This document shows, one piece after another, positions 9,273 through 49,275 of a stretch of 64,000 nucleotides of DNA. The stretch comes from Escherichia coli (GTDB lineage: Bacteria > Pseudomonadota > Gammaproteobacteria > Enterobacterales > Enterobacteriaceae). The notes beneath the pieces were generated by a model that was given only the letters and a program-made list of their open reading frames with translations, was not told the origin of the DNA and made no database searches. Where the stretch lies: assembly GCF_965641715.1 (NCBI RefSeq), contig NZ_OZ282453.1, one strand, 5' to 3'. Each line of letters begins with the position of its first letter. The stretch's first letter is position 1. The position numbers and the translations under genes were made by a program.

Positions 9273-10613
9273 GTGACTACATTAACGCTTGTTTTAACAG
9301 CAGTAGGGTCTGTTTTACTGCTGCTGTTTTTAGTCATGAAGGCGCGTATGCACGCTTTCCTGGCTTTGATGGTGGTGTCCATGGGGGCTGGCCTTTTTTC
9401 CGGTATGCCGCTCGATAAAATCGCAGCGACGATGGAAAAAGGGATGGGAGGCACCCTCGGCTTCCTGGCGGTGGTTGTCGCCCTGGGAGCTATGTTTGGC
9501 AAGATCTTACATGAAACCGGCGCAGTCGATCAGATTGCCGTCAAAATGCTCAAATCCTTCGGTCACAGCCGCGCGCATTATGCCATCGGCCTTGCGGGGC
9601 TGGTCTGTGCGCTACCGCTGTTCTTTGAAGTGGCGATTGTTCTGCTGATTAGCGTTGCTTTCTCAATGGCGCGCCACACCGGTACGAACCTGGTGAAGCT
9701 GGTAATCCCATTATTCGCAGGCGTGGCGGCAGCGGCGGCGTTCCTGGTGCCAGGGCCAGCGCCAATGCTGCTGGCATCGCAGATGAACGCCGATTTTGGC
9801 TGGATGATCCTGATTGGCCTGTGTGCGGCAATTCCGGGAATGATTATTGCCGGGCCGCTGTGGGGTAACTTCATCAGCCGTTACGTTGAGCTGCATATTC
9901 CTGATGACATCAGCGAGCCGCATCTCGGCGAAGGCAAAATGCCGTCCTTCGGATTCAGCCTGTCGCTGATCCTGCTGCCGCTGGTGCTGGTGGGGCTGAA
10001 AACCATTGCCGCGCGTTTTGTGCCAGAAGGCTCTACCGCTTACGAATGGTTCGAGTTTATTGGTCATCCGTTTACCGCGATTCTGGTTGCTTGTCTGGTA
10101 GCGATTTATGGCCTGGCAATGCGTCAGGGCATGCCAAAAGACAAAGTGATGGAGATTTGCGGTCACGCGCTGCAACCGGCGGGGATCATTCTGCTGGTGA
10201 TTGGTGCGGGCGGCGTGTTCAAACAGGTGCTGGTTGACTCTGGCGTAGGTCCGGCACTGGGCGAAGCGTTAACCGGCATGGGCCTGCCGATTGCTATCAC
10301 CTGCTTCGTGCTGGCCGCTGCAGTGCGCATCATTCAGGGTTCTGCAACCGTTGCCTGTTTAACGGCGGTGGGACTGGTGATGCCGGTTATTGAACAACTG
10401 AACTACTCCGGTGCGCAAATGGCGGCGCTGTCGATTTGTATCGCCGGTGGTTCGATTGTTGTCAGCCACGTTAACGACGCTGGTTTCTGGTTGTTCGGTA
10501 AATTTACCGGCGCGACCGAAGCCGAAACGCTGAAAACCTGGACCATGATGGAAACCATCCTCGGCACTGTCGGTGCCATCGTTGGGATGATTGCGTTCCA
10601 GCTGTTGAGTTAA
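9273..10613 (+). CDS. gntU: low-affinity gluconate:H+ symporter (GntP family)
   Basis: 446-aa polytopic membrane ORF beginning GTG (MTTLTLVLTAVGSV...); paralogous to gntT in this window. Confidence 0.9.
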   Translation: MTTLTLVLTAVGSVLLLLFLVMKARMHAFLALMVVSMGAGLFSGMPLDKIAATMEKGMGGTLGFLAVVVALGAMFGKILHETGAVDQIAVKMLKSFGHSRAHYAIGLAGLVCALPLFFEVAIVLLISVAFSMARHTGTNLVKLVIPLFAGVAAAAAFLVPGPAPMLLASQMNADFGWMILIGLCAAIPGMIIAGPLWGNFISRYVELHIPDDISEPHLGEGKMPSFGFSLSLILLPLVLVGLKTIAARFVPEGSTAYEWFEFIGHPFTAILVACLVAIYGLAMRQGMPKDKVMEICGHALQPAGIILLVIGAGGVFKQVLVDSGVGPALGEALTGMGLPIAITCFVLAAAVRIIQGSATVACLTAVGLVMPVIEQLNYSGAQMAALSICIAGGSIVVSHVNDAGFWLFGKFTGATEAETLKTWTMMETILGTVGAIVGMIAFQLLS

Positions 10614-10625
10614 TTACTGCGACAA

Positions 10626-10665
10626 ATTACTGCGAGCTTGCTCGCAGTAATTCATTTCTCTTTTC
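10626..10665 (+). terminator. gntU terminator hairpin
   Basis: Perfect inverted repeat ATTACTGCGA (10626..10635) / TCGCAGTAAT (10642..10651) followed by TCATTTCTCTTTTC. Confidence 0.6.
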
Positions 10666-10698
10666 TCCTCTCTTCATCTTTTTGATCTCTCTCGCAAA

Positions 10699-10747
10699 TT
10701 TACCTGCAAATAATCCGTTCTAATCACTGCCTAAAGATCGCAGGAGA
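10699..10747 (+). promoter_or_regulatory. candidate sigma70 promoter and RBS for the RecQ-like gene
   Basis: TTTACC (10699..10704), 16-nt spacer, TAATCA (10721..10726); AGGAGA (10742..10747) 5 nt upstream of the ATG at 10753. Confidence 0.3.
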
Positions 10748-10752
10748 TAAAG

Positions 10753-12849
10753 ATGGAAAAGCACGCAGCTGAATTGCTTTTACAGCGGATGTTAGGAAAT
10801 ACCACCGCTACTTTCAGGGAAGGGCAATGGGAAGCCATAGACGCGGTGGTGAACCAACGGCGAAAACTGCTGGTTGTCCAACGCACTGGCTGGGGGAAAA
10901 GTGCTGTGTACTTCATCGCCAGTAAAATCTTCCGCGATCGCGGCGCTGGCCCGACAATTATCATCTCTCCTTTGCTTGCCCTGATGCGTAACCAGGTTGC
11001 CGCCGCTGAACGGTTAGGTATTACGGCTGAAACGTTGAATTCTACAAACAGAGAAGAATGGCAGCGCATTAGCGATAAGTTGCTGCAAGGTGAGGTCGAT
11101 TGCTTGCTGGTTTCCCCGGAACGTTTGGCAAACCAGGACTTTATCGAAACGGTTTTATATCCTATAGCCGATCGTATTGGCTTGCTTGTGGTCGACGAGG
11201 CGCACTGCATCTCTGATTGGGGCCACGATTTTCGCCCGGATTACCGACGTATATTAGATATTTTGCGCCAACTACCTGCGAATACCCCTGTTCTGGGTAC
11301 AACCGCGACAGCGAATAACCGTGTCGTTGAGGATATCCGTCAGCAATTGGGTGACATTGTGATTCAGCGTGGAACGCTGGCTCGCGAAAGTTTGGCGCTT
11401 GATGCCTTAGTCTTAGGTGAACAGTCATCCCGTCTGGCATGGTTAGCAACGGTTATCCCTCAGTTTTCCAAATCGGGAATTGTTTATACCCTGACTACTC
11501 GCGATGCCGAACTTGTCGCCGAGTGGTTAAGGAAAAATGGTATCAGTGCATTTGCTTACTACAGCGGCGTGACTTGCGAAGGCGCGGAAGATTCTAATAC
11601 TGCCAGGGAATATCTGGAGCAGGCGTTGCTGGCAAATAAAATTAAAGTGCTGGTTGCGACAACGGCGCTGGGAATGGGCTTTGACAAACCGGATTTGGGG
11701 TTTGTTATTCATTACCAGATGCCAGGTTCGATAGTTGGTTACTACCAACAGGTGGGGCGTGCCGGTCGCGGTATCGATTCTGCTGTTGGCATACTGCTTT
11801 GCGGCAGTGAAGACCGTGCTATTCATAAATTCTTCCGTGAAAGCGCCTTTCCTGCGGAGGCGCAAATTCATGAAATACTCAACGTACTTAGCGTGAATGA
11901 CGGTCTTACCTTACGAGGCATTGAACAACGGACGAATCTCCGTTATGGGCAAATAGAAAAAGCACTGAAATTATTGGTAGCTGAAAATCCATCGCCTGTG
12001 GTGTATACCGAGAAATTATGGCGCAGAACAATTGTCAGTTTTTCTCCTGACCATGAACGAATTAACCATTTGATGAATCAGAGAAAAAGTGAGCTGGCAG
12101 ACGTTGAAAGCTATATCACGACCAAGGAGTGCAAAATGCAATTTCTGCGCCGCGCACTCGATGAGCCAGGTGCCGAACATTGTGGTAAATGTAGCAGTTG
12201 TCTTCAGCATCCGTTGTTGTCGCCCGACATTGATAGCGGCTTACTCCATGCGGCAAACTTATTTATTAAACACGCTGACCTGCCATTAAATCTCAATAAA
12301 CAGGTGGCAGCTGGGGCTTTTACGCAATACGGATTTAAAGGGAACTTGCCTGCGAGTTTACAAGGATCTACGGGGCGAATCCTTTCTCGTTGGGGAGATT
12401 CCGGGTGGGGAAAGCAGGTAGCACAGGAGAAAAAAACGGGGCGATTCAGTGATGAACTGGTGGAGGCATGTGCGGAAATGGTTCGCCAACGCTGGAATCC
12501 GCATCCTGAACCAACCTGGGTATGCTGCGTTCCTTCATTAAAGCACCTCGACCTGGTTCCTGATTTTGCCCGGCGACTGGCGGCGAAACTTGGCTTACCT
12601 TTTATTGATGCCATTGAAAAAGTCGTGGACAATCCACCGCAGAAAATGCAGCAAAACCGTTTCCACCAGTGTCAAAATCTCGACGGGGCGTTTGTGATTA
12701 CCCCTCCTTTGATGCCTGGTCCGGCGTTGCTGGTTGACGATATCGTGGATTCTGCATGGACGCTGACAGTTCTGACAGCACTGTTACGCCAGGCAGGTTG
12801 CCCGACGGTTTATCCTCTTGCCCTTGCTTCTACCTCGGTAAAAAATTGA
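10753..12849 (+). CDS. RecQ-like superfamily-2 DNA helicase fused to a C-terminal divergent phosphoribosyltransferase (ComF/GntX-like) domain; candidate toxin/effector of a two-gene module
   Basis: 698-aa ORF. Walker A QRTGWGKSAV, DEAH box LLVVDEAHCISDWGHDFR, motif VI QQVGRAGRG, Cys cluster CKMQ...HCGKCSSC, C-terminal PRTase-like fold with altered PRPP loop (LLVDDIVDSAWTL). Strong AGGAGA RBS. Confidence 0.85.
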   Translation: MEKHAAELLLQRMLGNTTATFREGQWEAIDAVVNQRRKLLVVQRTGWGKSAVYFIASKIFRDRGAGPTIIISPLLALMRNQVAAAERLGITAETLNSTNREEWQRISDKLLQGEVDCLLVSPERLANQDFIETVLYPIADRIGLLVVDEAHCISDWGHDFRPDYRRILDILRQLPANTPVLGTTATANNRVVEDIRQQLGDIVIQRGTLARESLALDALVLGEQSSRLAWLATVIPQFSKSGIVYTLTTRDAELVAEWLRKNGISAFAYYSGVTCEGAEDSNTAREYLEQALLANKIKVLVATTALGMGFDKPDLGFVIHYQMPGSIVGYYQQVGRAGRGIDSAVGILLCGSEDRAIHKFFRESAFPAEAQIHEILNVLSVNDGLTLRGIEQRTNLRYGQIEKALKLLVAENPSPVVYTEKLWRRTIVSFSPDHERINHLMNQRKSELADVESYITTKECKMQFLRRALDEPGAEHCGKCSSCLQHPLLSPDIDSGLLHAANLFIKHADLPLNLNKQVAAGAFTQYGFKGNLPASLQGSTGRILSRWGDSGWGKQVAQEKKTGRFSDELVEACAEMVRQRWNPHPEPTWVCCVPSLKHLDLVPDFARRLAAKLGLPFIDAIEKVVDNPPQKMQQNRFHQCQNLDGAFVITPPLMPGPALLVDDIVDSAWTLTVLTALLRQAGCPTVYPLALASTSVKN

Positions 12850-14051
12850 TGAATCTTTCAGCCAATGCACAAGCAACTCTCCTGCTAACCAGCGATTTTT
12901 CTCGCGCGGCGGCGAGTGAGTATAAACCTCTTAGTAATAGTGAATGGGGGAAGTTTGCATTATGGCTGAAGCACCAACGTATCAGTCCCGCCGAGCTTCT
13001 GGTGCCGCAACCGCAAGAGAAACTTACAGGCTGGAGCGATCCGCGTATTTCTCAGGAGCGTATTCTTGGCTTGCTGGCGCGTGGTCATAGTCTGGCGTTG
13101 GCGGTAGATAAGTGGCAACGCGCCGGTTTATGGATCTTAACCCGCGGAGATGCTGATTATCCCGTTCGCTTGAAAAACCGATTGCGAACGGATGCACCTC
13201 CCGTTTTATTTGGCTGCGGGAATAAAGCATTACTGCAAGCGGAAGGTATGGCGATTGTTGGCTCGCGAGATGCTCCGACTGACGATTTGCGCTATACCCA
13301 ACAACTGGCCGCGAAACTGGCCCAACAGGGGATTTGCGTTATCTCTGGTGGTGCGCGAGGTATTGATGAATGTGCAATGGCGTCGGCACTGGAGGCCGGG
13401 GGAACTGCCGTTGGCGTATTAGCTGATAGCTTGTTAAAAACGAGTACGTTAGTGAAATGGCGTGAAGGGCTTATAGCAGGCAACCTGGTGTTGATTTCGC
13501 CGTTTTACCCAGAGGTACGTTTCACCGTCGGCAATGCGATGGCGCGAAATAAATATATTTATTGCCTTGCTGAAAGCGCAATGGTTGTACGTGCGGGAAT
13601 GACCGGTGGAACGATAACCGGGGCGATGGAGGCATTAAAACATCAGTGGCTGCCTGTGCAGGTTAAACCAAATCAGGATATGCAATCAGCCAATTCACGA
13701 TTAGTAGAAAATGGGGCGTCATGGAGTGCTGAACAGGCTGAGAATGTGACGATCAGACTGCCAGACGTTCCTGGGCTGATGTATGACAGAGCACTCCGTA
13801 ACGCTCAACCAGAACTGTTTTCGCTGCATGAAGATGACGCAAATTACGCAGTAATGCCCGCGTATACGCCTGTCGATTTTTATCAACTCTTTGTGGCGGA
13901 ACTGGCGATCCTTGCAAAGGAATCGATAAGTATTGAAAGGCTGGCGTCTTGTACTGGTTTAACCATCGAACAAATTAGTGTGTGGCTGAACCGCGCAGAA
14001 GAAGAGGGAAGGGTTATCCGATTGGGCGAAGGTCATTATCAGTTCAGGTAA
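12849..14051 (+). CDS. DprA/Smf-like protein; candidate antitoxin/partner of the RecQ-PRTase protein
   Basis: ATG at 12849..12851 overlaps the helicase TGA (12847..12849); 400 aa (MNLSANAQATLLL...); Rossmann signature GMAIVGSRDAPTDDLRYTQQLAAKLAQQGICVISGGARGIDECAMASALEAGG; ORF track extends it upstream in the same frame (12756). Confidence 0.8.
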   Translation: MNLSANAQATLLLTSDFSRAAASEYKPLSNSEWGKFALWLKHQRISPAELLVPQPQEKLTGWSDPRISQERILGLLARGHSLALAVDKWQRAGLWILTRGDADYPVRLKNRLRTDAPPVLFGCGNKALLQAEGMAIVGSRDAPTDDLRYTQQLAAKLAQQGICVISGGARGIDECAMASALEAGGTAVGVLADSLLKTSTLVKWREGLIAGNLVLISPFYPEVRFTVGNAMARNKYIYCLAESAMVVRAGMTGGTITGAMEALKHQWLPVQVKPNQDMQSANSRLVENGASWSAEQAENVTIRLPDVPGLMYDRALRNAQPELFSLHEDDANYAVMPAYTPVDFYQLFVAELAILAKESISIERLASCTGLTIEQISVWLNRAEEEGRVIRLGEGHYQFR

Positions 14052-14053
14052 TA

Positions 14054-14091
14054 AAACAGGTGCCGCGTCTGGTTGTGTGCAGCACCTGTTT
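14054..14091. terminator. inverted repeat / likely bidirectional terminator between the DprA-like gene and yhgN
   Basis: AAACAGGTGC (14054..14063) / GCACCTGTTT (14082..14091), 18-nt loop. Confidence 0.4.
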
Positions 14092-14096
14092 GAACC

Positions 14097-14690
14097 TTAC
14101 CCCTTCATCCACATTCGAATGCCGTCGAGGAACATCTGGGTTGCCATCATCACCAGAATCAATCCCATCAGGCGTTCAAGTGCGTTCACCCCTTTCTCGC
14201 CCAGCAGACGTAAAAATAGCGAAGACTGTAGCAGGATGACAAAGGTGCCGCCCCAGGCCAGCAGCAGAGCAATCACCAGATGTCCCATCTGATTCGGGTA
14301 CTGATGAGACAACAACATCAGCGTGGCGAGAATAGTTGGCCCGGCGACCAGCGGAATTGCCAGCGGCACGATAAATGGCTCTTCACCTGCCGGAAGCCCG
14401 CTGCTATTTCCTGAAGCGCTGGGGAAAATCATCTTAATGGCAATTAGAAACAGAATGATGCCGCCAGAAATGGAGACGGTTTCTGCTCGCAGGCTGAGAA
14501 ATGCCAGAATTTTCTCACCCGCAAACAGGAACACCAGCATCACCAGGAGAGCAATAAGCAACTCTCGCACCATGATTGCCCGCCGTCTTTTCGGTTCAGT
14601 ATGTTTCAGTACGGACATGAAAATAGGTAGGTTTCCGAGCGGATCCATAATCAGGATCAATAAAACTGCTGCAGAAATGATTTCATTCAT
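14097..14690 (-). CDS. yhgN: MarC-family inner membrane protein
   Basis: 197-aa multi-TM ORF (MNEIISAAVLLILIMDPLGNLPIF...); adjacent to asd as in K-12 (recalled). Confidence 0.9.
   Translation of the reverse strand: MNEIISAAVLLILIMDPLGNLPIFMSVLKHTEPKRRRAIMVRELLIALLVMLVFLFAGEKILAFLSLRAETVSISGGIILFLIAIKMIFPSASGNSSGLPAGEEPFIVPLAIPLVAGPTILATLMLLSHQYPNQMGHLVIALLLAWGGTFVILLQSSLFLRLLGEKGVNALERLMGLILVMMATQMFLDGIRMWMKG

Positions 14691-47783: not shown

Positions 47784-49275
<1,492 letters not shown>

Follow-up and report, generated by a model that had tools for sequence, protein, structure and literature searches.

The Escherichia coli chromosome carries, between gntU and yhgN, a gene for a RecQ-like helicase with an additional C-terminal domain, and this locus raises the question of whether a phosphoribosyltransferase (PRTase) domain can have exchanged the loop that would bind phosphoribosyl pyrophosphate (PRPP). 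The stretch of DNA analysed, hereafter the window, is 64,000 nucleotides of E. coli chromosome (NCBI RefSeq assembly GCF_965641715.1, contig NZ_OZ282453.1), with gntK-gntU to the left of the locus and yhgN-asd to its right. A sequence-only reading of the window had flagged the region 12400-12846 and proposed that the canonical PRPP loop is replaced there by DSAWT. We find that the flagged protein is PsyrT (RqlH), which serves as the toxin in PsyrTA (RqlHI), a two-gene toxin-antitoxin and anti-phage system, and that its PRPP-binding motif is best read, from alignments and a predicted structure, as intact and not lost.

The protein is identified as PsyrT because both genes of the pair match their PADLOC profiles, the same locus recurs across E. 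coli, and the residue numbering is that of the published RqlH mutants. The PsyrT profile PDLC03928 matched with E=0 and 1065.9 bits (aa 3-697 against profile positions 5-687 of 689), and the PsyrA profile PDLC03927 matched the product of the adjacent, co-oriented gene with E=1.1e-202 (protein 1-400 against profile 1-397 of 398, 12849-14048). The tetrapeptide DIVD falls at residues 663-666 of the window protein, as in the mutant series. The same gene was described in RqlH/RqlI of the extraintestinal pathogenic E. coli (ExPEC) strain F11 (Russell & Mulvey 2015, PMC4670107), and RqlH is PsyrT of PsyrTA (Sberro 2013; Millman 2022); F11 and the window have the same architecture, DprA-like RqlI/PsyrA partner and numbering, with allelic differences in the domain of at most 2%. 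Russell and Mulvey called the C-terminus of RqlH 'an unusual PRTase domain' (PMC4670107). In their work, F11 RqlH was strongly toxic in a D663-dependent manner and was rescued by RqlI; growth inhibition and SOS induction were abolished by deletion of the PRTase, by D663A or by DIVD663>EVME; and co-immunoprecipitation of RqlI with RqlH needed the PRTase domain, failing with RqlH 1-509 (PMC4670107). PsyrTA (= RqlHI) is also in the list of defence systems as a PRTase-bearing toxin with a DprA-like antitoxin (Millman et al., 10.1101/2022.05.11.491447).

The architecture was set out in 2012 for Mycobacterium smegmatis RqlH: a RecQ-like ATPase, a linker, a tetracysteine Zn domain and a ComF/PRTase-like C-domain, without HRDC (Ordonez, Unciuleac & Shuman, PMC3378886). 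That protein, a distant orthologue, shares the architecture of PsyrT, and its C-domain is dispensable for ATPase and helicase activity (PMC3378886); the DprA-like pairing is not universal in Gram-positive bacteria (PMC4670107). Given these earlier papers on RqlH and PsyrTA, every structural element of the flagged feature was already in print, save the detailed reading of the loop. The object is thus an already known system with a ComFC-like domain, and the question of its substrate has already been raised in the literature.

RefSeq labels psyrT 'RecQ family ATP-dependent DNA helicase'. In the motor, Pfam detected DEAD (aa 23-194, E=4.9e-25), Helicase_C (aa 239-339, E=9.5e-13) and also ResIII. 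The NCBIfam recQ_fam model TIGR00614 scored 253.9 over aa 19-357 against a cut-off of 219.8, whereas the RecQ equivalog TIGR01389 scored 298, far under its cut-off of 640. By these profile scores, PsyrT is a member of the recQ_fam subfamily and not a bona fide RecQ equivalog with an RQC/HRDC C-terminal region. The sequence-only reading had placed a RecQ-type Cys cluster before the PRTase domain and had seen no HRDC-like region, and it was right on both counts: CGKCSSC occupies aa 477-483 inside a weak RecQ_Zn_bind match, and a Pfam search of the 698-aa protein returned no HRDC or RQC match. M. smegmatis RqlH has the homologue of this Zn-binding module in its tetracysteine domain (PMC3378886).

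For the C-terminal domain, the last 199 aa served as query and gave 1620 matches at E<=1e-3, from which 150 representatives of 50%-identity clusters were drawn; 41 diverse domains were aligned as a family profile, and conservation was counted over 126 diverse representatives. The AlphaFold2 (AF2) model of the domain had a mean predicted local distance difference test score (pLDDT) of 96.4 and a predicted template modelling score (pTM) of 0.92. The hydrophobic strand with its acidic pair, described earlier from the letters, is indeed there: ALLVDDIVDSAWTLT spans aa 658-672 (nt 12724-12768, within the flagged region), and the model places a strand at aa 658-665 (model E159-166) and a helix from W669 (model H170-181). 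All top matches of a Foldseek search against the Protein Data Bank (PDB) were type I PRTases, with Helicobacter pylori ComF (7p0h_A) aligned over the greater part of the query, and the structural match of the domain to ComFC is better than any other by a wide margin. At the level of sequence, single-sequence phmmer against PDB gave only marginal matches (E ~0.1) and the family profile was required, which reached PRPP synthetases at E=1e-5 and, more weakly, HGPRTs and PurF. Pfam Pribosyltran matched PsyrT weakly (aa 605-683, E=0.0087) and was found at E<=1e-3 in 27/41 family members. Comparison of the family with GntX of the window by hhalign gave 95.5% probability and E=1.4e-8, while the ComF model TIGR00201 had no match on PsyrT at E<=1e-3 (GntX: 271 bits); homology between PsyrT and ComF is detectable only by profile-profile comparison and structure.

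According to the predicted structure, the C-terminal region is a ComF-like type I PRTase, with the Rossmann-like PRT core in which helices flank a parallel beta-sheet. Its hood starts at about aa 500, upstream of 12400, the first coordinate of the flagged region. In the predicted structure and the alignments, both the pyrophosphate (PPi) loop and the flexible loop are present between the expected secondary-structure elements, and the flexible-loop region aligns with the Q...N-L-x-x-A-F motif of ComF in GntX and with the catalytic flexible loop of PRPP synthetases. PsyrT and ComFC have the hood and the PRT core in common; the Cys cluster of PsyrT scores as RecQ_Zn_bind and not as the ComF finger, and its loop is DSAWT against TTGxT. 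Family-wide, the loop is T-T-G-[AST]-T in ComF against D-S-[RGA]-W-T in PsyrT, and the PPi loop is of RGFNQ type in ComF against S-x-[RK]-x-P-x-L-V in PsyrT.

Within this fold, DSAWT stands at the canonical position and has the canonical length, and every sequence or profile alignment runs gap-free through the motif. The PsyrT segment LLVDDIVDSAWTLT aligns ungapped to VDDVVSTGSTL of Thermus thermophilus APRT; other ungapped partners are LIDDIIDTAGTIT (Bacillus subtilis PRPP synthetase), LVDDMIDTGGTL (PRPP synthetase 4s2u) and IVDDVVTTGSTV (GntX). The sequence-only reading had used gntX as its comparator, and the gene is present where it was placed, with VIVDDVVTTGSTV, but lies on the minus strand. 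We compared the motifs with a signature of four hydrophobic, two acidic and two hydrophobic residues followed by [STAVD]-[STAR]-[GAC]-x-[STAR]; this pattern is the purine/pyrimidine PRTase signature (PROSITE PS00103), and it was tested empirically. It was matched by all six proteins compared, namely PsyrT (ALLVDDIVDSAWT), GntX (MVIVDDVVTTGST) and the E. coli K-12 enzymes Hpt (VLIVEDIIDSGNT), Gpt (FIVIDDLVDTGGT), Apt (VLVVDDLLATGGT) and PyrE (VMLVDDVITAGTA). Over the six frames of the window it retrieved PsyrT and GntX only, with 0 matches in 100 shuffles.

Relative to DSGNT of Hpt, DSAWT differs at 2/5 positions (the variable position and Gly>Ala) and DSGWT at 1/5. The active PRPP synthetases of B. 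subtilis and Burkholderia likewise have Ala in place of this Gly, and the PsyrT loop is of the D-[ST]-[GA]-x-T type (compare Hpt DSGNT, DTGGT of Gpt and PRPP synthetase, and DTAGT of the B. subtilis PRPP synthetase). The hydroxyl residues expected to bind the 5'-phosphate are retained in the alignment, and T670 is the counterpart of H. pylori ComFC T165, of which the T165A mutation abolishes nucleotide binding (PMC9005727). Replacement of the canonical loop is therefore not what we observe; the loop looked replaced because it had been compared with the ComF-type TTGST only. No canonical loop was found elsewhere in the sequence, and the region has a PRTase fold. Hpt, Gpt, Apt, PyrE and the PRPP synthetases have the core fold and PRPP signature in common with PsyrT, with DSGNT and DTAGT bracketing DSAWT; PsyrT differs from these housekeeping PRTases in its ComF-type hood, an invariant Trp at the variable position, Arg for Gly in about half of the family and its role as a toxin.

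In the family alignment, the Ser, Trp, Thr and DD pair of the motif are kept at 96-100%, and Ala is uncommon, being confined to Escherichia and Shigella in the close search. Over the 126 representatives, conservation was 100% for D662, 99% for D663, 81% for D666, 99% for S667, 98% for W669 and 96% for T670; beyond the loop it was 99% for P594 and 98% for S595 at the start of the PPi loop, 100% for Q630, 97% for N635 and 98% for N642, with several hood residues at 97-100%. Position 668, in contrast, is Arg in 54%, Gly in 35% and Ala in 4% (4/126), with Thr, Lys or Ser in the rest, and members with Arg would fail the [GAC] position of the signature. Since the flanking residues are near-invariant while 668 varies, the family signature is D-S-x-W-T: an invariant Trp takes the position that is variable in other PRTases, and the family can do without the usual Gly, a genuine but modest peculiarity. 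Among E. coli alleles, identity in the PRTase region is at least 98%, the 98.0% allele also carries DSAWT, and the differences in the domain comprise 7 synonymous and 2 non-synonymous changes; this pattern shows purifying selection on the domain.

The family set also yielded observations outside the pocket. We rejected the idea that residue 668 (R or G) tracks the DprA-like partner, as a DNA_processg_A gene follows R-type (P0137, P0225) and G-type (P0143) homologues alike; for P0129, the contig stops too early to tell. Also rejected was the idea that short matches (170-330 aa) are stand-alone ComF-like PRTases: they are fragments or truncated gene calls, because most have an upstream RecQ-type 'FL..LDD..CG.C..C' segment. 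Among the family fragments, P0169, P0159, P0196, P0220 and P0178 have no CxxC pairs before the hood ('FL..ALDGD...'), so that part of the family does without the Zn-binding cluster. A metagenomic homologue of 927 aa, P0133, carries at its C-terminus, next to the PRTase, a Dual-OB domain (Pfam DuOB PF22557, E=1.4e-43) and so, as predicted from these domain matches, joins the PRTase module and a domain of single-stranded DNA (ssDNA)-binding type in one polypeptide. In P0227 (1056 aa), P0193, P0218 (1441 aa) and P0251 (1720 aa), the helicase-PRTase unit stands at the end after about 390 or more extra N-terminal residues; the loops of this subgroup read DD-V-V-[AG]-S-R-W-T with Asp666 lost, its PPi loops read VPSxSxEG, and the N-terminal extension of P0227 gave no confident Pfam domain.

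These results suggest a site that is functional in ligand binding and probably catalytic, because the whole pocket is strongly conserved, synonymous allele differences outnumber non-synonymous ones, and D663A loses toxicity. We consider it fairly probable that the ComF-like type I PRTase of the PsyrT toxin, with its motif intact, binds and turns over PRPP or a 5'-phosphoribosyl ligand. The domain would hold this ligand in the DSAWT pocket and would be kept in check by the helicase domain and by binding of PsyrA to the PRTase domain; released from both, it would turn PRPP over, by transfer to an acceptor or by net PRPP consumption, and the resulting disturbance of nucleotide and DNA metabolism could lead to SOS induction, filamentation and growth arrest. 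The scheme starts from the established identity and fold of the protein, the conservation of its motif, the need for D663 in toxicity and an association of PsyrA and RqlH that depends on the PRTase; ShosT, ComFC and the Retron-Eco11 effector are the analogues from which we infer that PsyrT would bind PRPP and turn it over. ShosT binds PRPP-Mg in the equivalent pocket, its PRPP binding is essential for toxicity, and purine metabolism is disturbed with filamentation (PMC11961720, PMC12961424). The Retron-Eco11 PRTase effector has a motif, VVILTDTIGSGNQ, that is less canonical still and yet essential, and about 50% of PRPP is depleted on its activation (PMC12746101). ComFC has been crystallised with PRPP and binds nucleoside monophosphates (NMPs) (PMC9005727).

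The analogies have bounds. ComFC (H. pylori, PDB 7P0H) is a competence factor, whereas PsyrT is a toxin fused to a RecQ-like motor. ShosT (PDB 8ZVB/8ZVC) has an N-terminal pyrophosphatase-type domain where PsyrT has a helicase. The partners behave differently as well: there is no direct binding of ShosA to ShosT, whereas RqlH brings down RqlI in co-immunoprecipitation in a PRTase-dependent manner. Neither ShosT nor ComFC was retrieved by the family sequence profile from PDB at E<=1, so that ShosT and the PsyrT PRTase have no sequence-level match in that search, and both surfaced by structure search only. The Retron-Eco11 (type III-A3) effector resembles PsyrT as a defence PRTase with a non-classical yet essential PRPP motif and helicase-linked activation (PMC12746101); it differs, in a comparison made by description, in its retron context, its winged-helix fusion and its motif without the DD pair.

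Several points weigh against turnover of PRPP by PsyrT. Neither ShosT nor ComFC has demonstrated PRTase activity on common bases (PMC11961720, PMC9005727). The isolated PRTase domain is non-toxic and the helicase-dead mutants behave in a complex way (PMC4670107). With Arg at 668 in more than half of the family, those loops are Gly-free and outside the classical signature, and the canonical enzymes compared have no such bulky Trp in their 5'-phosphate loops. One study detected no protection against phage by native E. coli PsyrTA (10.1101/2024.12.20.629700).

Some of these points speak for the proposal that the PRTase is a non-catalytic sensor or docking module for a nucleotide, PRPP or ssDNA (compare ComFC, PurR and PyrR), with toxicity arising from a misregulated helicase. 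For ComFC, the best structural match, binding of ssDNA and NMPs is established but catalysis is not (PMC9005727), no transferase activity was found when ShosT was given common purines (PMC11961720), the isolated PRTase does not poison cells (PMC4670107), the Dual-OB domain of P0133 directly follows the PRTase, and PsyrA is DprA-like. However, the near-invariant set of catalytic type (DD, the Q/N of the flexible loop, the P-S of the PPi loop) exceeds what a phosphate sensor needs, and related defence PRTases measurably deplete PRPP or disturb purines (PMC12746101, PMC11961720). The genetics of RqlH argue in the same direction: helicase-dead K49A is still harmful and its harm is rescued by added D663A (PMC4670107), so that the harm maps to the PRTase pocket and not to the motor. 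We therefore regard a sensor without catalysis as unlikely. The sequence-only reading had suggested altered substrate chemistry or a non-catalytic role, and part of this stands: the domain is ComFC-like and a ligand-sensing or nucleic-acid-linked role is possible, ideas already in the literature (PMC4670107, PMC5512222). Loss of function, in contrast, is unlikely, because the DD pair, S667, W669, T670, Q630, N635 and N642 are kept at 96-100% and because of the effect of D663A.

A nucleic-acid-linked role takes its most specific form in the model of Russell and Mulvey, in which the helicase delivers ssDNA, phosphoribose is put on a DNA base or end, and PsyrA/RqlI resolves or masks the lesion; the invariant Trp would stack on the target base. 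SOS induction, a mutator effect and sensitivity to DNA damage, all D663-dependent (PMC4670107), are what such a DNA-directed PRTase would produce, and the family-wide helicase-PRTase fusion, the DprA-like partner of both R-type and G-type loops, the invariant aromatic W669 at a predicted pocket-entrance position and the dual-OB fusion in some homologues fit it as well. Nevertheless, DNA adducts have never been reported, disturbance of nucleotide pools explains SOS equally, as for ShosT (PMC11961720), and the pocket is built like those of small-molecule PRTases; we judge this model decidedly improbable. Equally doubtful in our estimate is a broader form in which the invariant Trp, the frequent Arg and the Gly-less loop mark a distinct catalytic subclass, with a nucleic-acid-linked or otherwise unusual donor or acceptor coming from the helicase. 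Binding and turnover of PRPP or a 5'-phosphoribosyl ligand is the reading that we retain.

Across E. coli, psyrTA is found at the same gntU-yhgN site in 1650/5426 complete genomes (~30%). In genomes without psyrTA, gntU and yhgN are 56 bp apart and the spacer is unrelated, homology ending exactly at the gntU stop, 10613. Because homology to these empty-site genomes breaks at 10613 and the two genes lie 56 bp apart there, psyrTA is a clean 3.4-kb two-gene insertion (10614-14096) in a core-genome slot between the convergent gntU and yhgN. Comparison of the empty site with the island junctions for direct repeats or shared sequence gave only a 9-mer chance match, and no mobility genes were seen. 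The terminator-like hairpin at the left edge (Table 1) is likely a gntU terminator supplied by the island. A scan of 10560-14150, including the region upstream of psyrT, found no sigma-70 consensus promoter.

Some copies have decayed. In E. coli O157:H7 ATCC 43894, a 29-bp tandem duplication (AAAGCACCTCGACCTGGTTCCTGATTTTG) after the F605 codon, at about 12540-12570 of the window, frameshifts the PRTase just past the PPi loop; RefSeq flags the gene 'frameshifted; internal stop', and psyrA is intact. This psyrT is, to judge from its reading frame, a pseudogene, with the toxin lost and the antitoxin retained. The Shigella sonnei copies (P0002-P0013) are shortened to 656-657 aa or partial at 593-604 aa, compared with 698 aa, which suggests decay of psyrT in that lineage too.

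One might accordingly ask whether Ala668 of the E. coli allele is itself a step of toxin attenuation or decay, with the PRTase weakened or inactive. In the close search (120 full-length homologues), DSAWT was confined to Escherichia/Shigella and all homologues at <=74% identity had DSGWT, and the frameshift in O157:H7, the truncations in S. sonnei and the undetectable phage defence of native E. coli PsyrTA (10.1101/2024.12.20.629700) would accord with attenuation. But the F11 protein is strongly toxic through D663 (PMC4670107), expression of E. coli PsyrTA still gives a growth defect (10.1101/2024.12.20.629700), Ala occurs here in active PRPP synthetases and 4 other diverged representatives, and the allele differences point to purifying selection. 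Attenuation is disfavoured by this documented toxicity of the E. coli protein, and we hold it to be very improbable indeed.

The coordinates of the locus and of the comparator gene are collected in Table 1.

Table 1. Features of the psyrTA locus and of the gntX comparator, in positions of the window
Feature	Position	Strand	Basis or remark
Terminator-like hairpin, 12-bp stem and T-rich tail	10625..10652	+	directly after gntU stop, left edge of insertion
psyrT / rqlH coding sequence, 698 aa, RecQ-like helicase fused to ComF-like PRTase	10753..12849	+	open reading frame list, PADLOC, NCBIfam
RecQ-like superfamily 2 (SF2) ATPase/helicase core, aa 20-357	10810..11823	+	Pfam, TIGR00614
RecQ-type Zn-binding module, aa 443-484	12079..12204	+	weak Pfam RecQ_Zn_bind (E=0.0031), Cys cluster
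ComF-like 'hood' subdomain, aa 500-565	12250..12447	+	precedes PRTase core
Type I PRTase core, aa 566-698	12448..12846	+	fold evidence, weak Pfam Pribosyltran
PPi-loop equivalent VPSLKHLD, aa 593-600	12529..12552	+	between strand 589-592 and helix 601-613 (predicted structure); matches 'VPL' of GntX
Flexible-loop equivalent VVDNPPQKMQQN, aa 624-635, then helix with N642	12622..12657	+	conserved residues, profile alignments
PRPP-binding motif ALLVDDIVDSAWT, aa 658-670: hydrophobic strand and DD pair, then D-S-A-W-T as 5'-phosphate loop at the start of a helix	12724..12762	+	alignments, signature, predicted structure
psyrA / rqlI coding sequence, DprA-like antitoxin, 400 aa	12849..14051	+	PADLOC; ATG overlaps psyrT stop as TGATG
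gntX (ComF family), comparator; PRPP motif MVIVDDVVTTGST at 47862-47900	47784..48467	-	NCBIfam GntX NF008616 E=6.7e-130, ComF TIGR00201 E=4.5e-81

The partner gene psyrA carries the RefSeq label 'DNA-processing protein DprA'. The PADLOC ShosA profile matched its product more weakly than the PsyrA profile, and NCBIfam dprA TIGR00732 scored 102, under its cut-off. RefSeq starts psyrA at ATG 12756 (431 aa), with a 94-nt overlap with psyrT in another frame; the PsyrA profile alignment begins at ATG 12849, and in diverged homologues the overlaps are 4-8 nt. The RefSeq start is thus probably 31 codons too long, and the arrangement of the two reading frames makes translational coupling of psyrT and psyrA likely. 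PsyrA aa 134-194 (window 13248-13430) has a weak TIGR00725 match (E=3.2e-8), and PsyrA homologues have weak Pfam LDcluster4 matches beside DNA_processg_A. If TIGR00725 and LDcluster4 are LOG/SLOG-type nucleotide-binding folds, PsyrA may act on a nucleotide product of the PRTase, by binding or processing it.

The flagged feature by itself leaves the existing suspicions of the field unchanged, and its value lies in annotation: the locus should be annotated as the toxin-antitoxin and defence module PsyrTA/RqlHI, and to label it a RecQ paralogue whose PRTase is dead would be wrong. The conservation map gives W669, S667, T670, Q630, N635 and N642 as targets for mutagenesis, with 668 free as R, G or A. 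Were the family a distinct catalytic subclass, acting for example by phosphoribosylating DNA bases or ends, this would account for genotoxicity. As judged from its conservation, the PRPP pocket of PsyrT is best treated as functional, and the biochemical activity of the PsyrT PRTase is of interest for phage defence and for the fitness of ExPEC.

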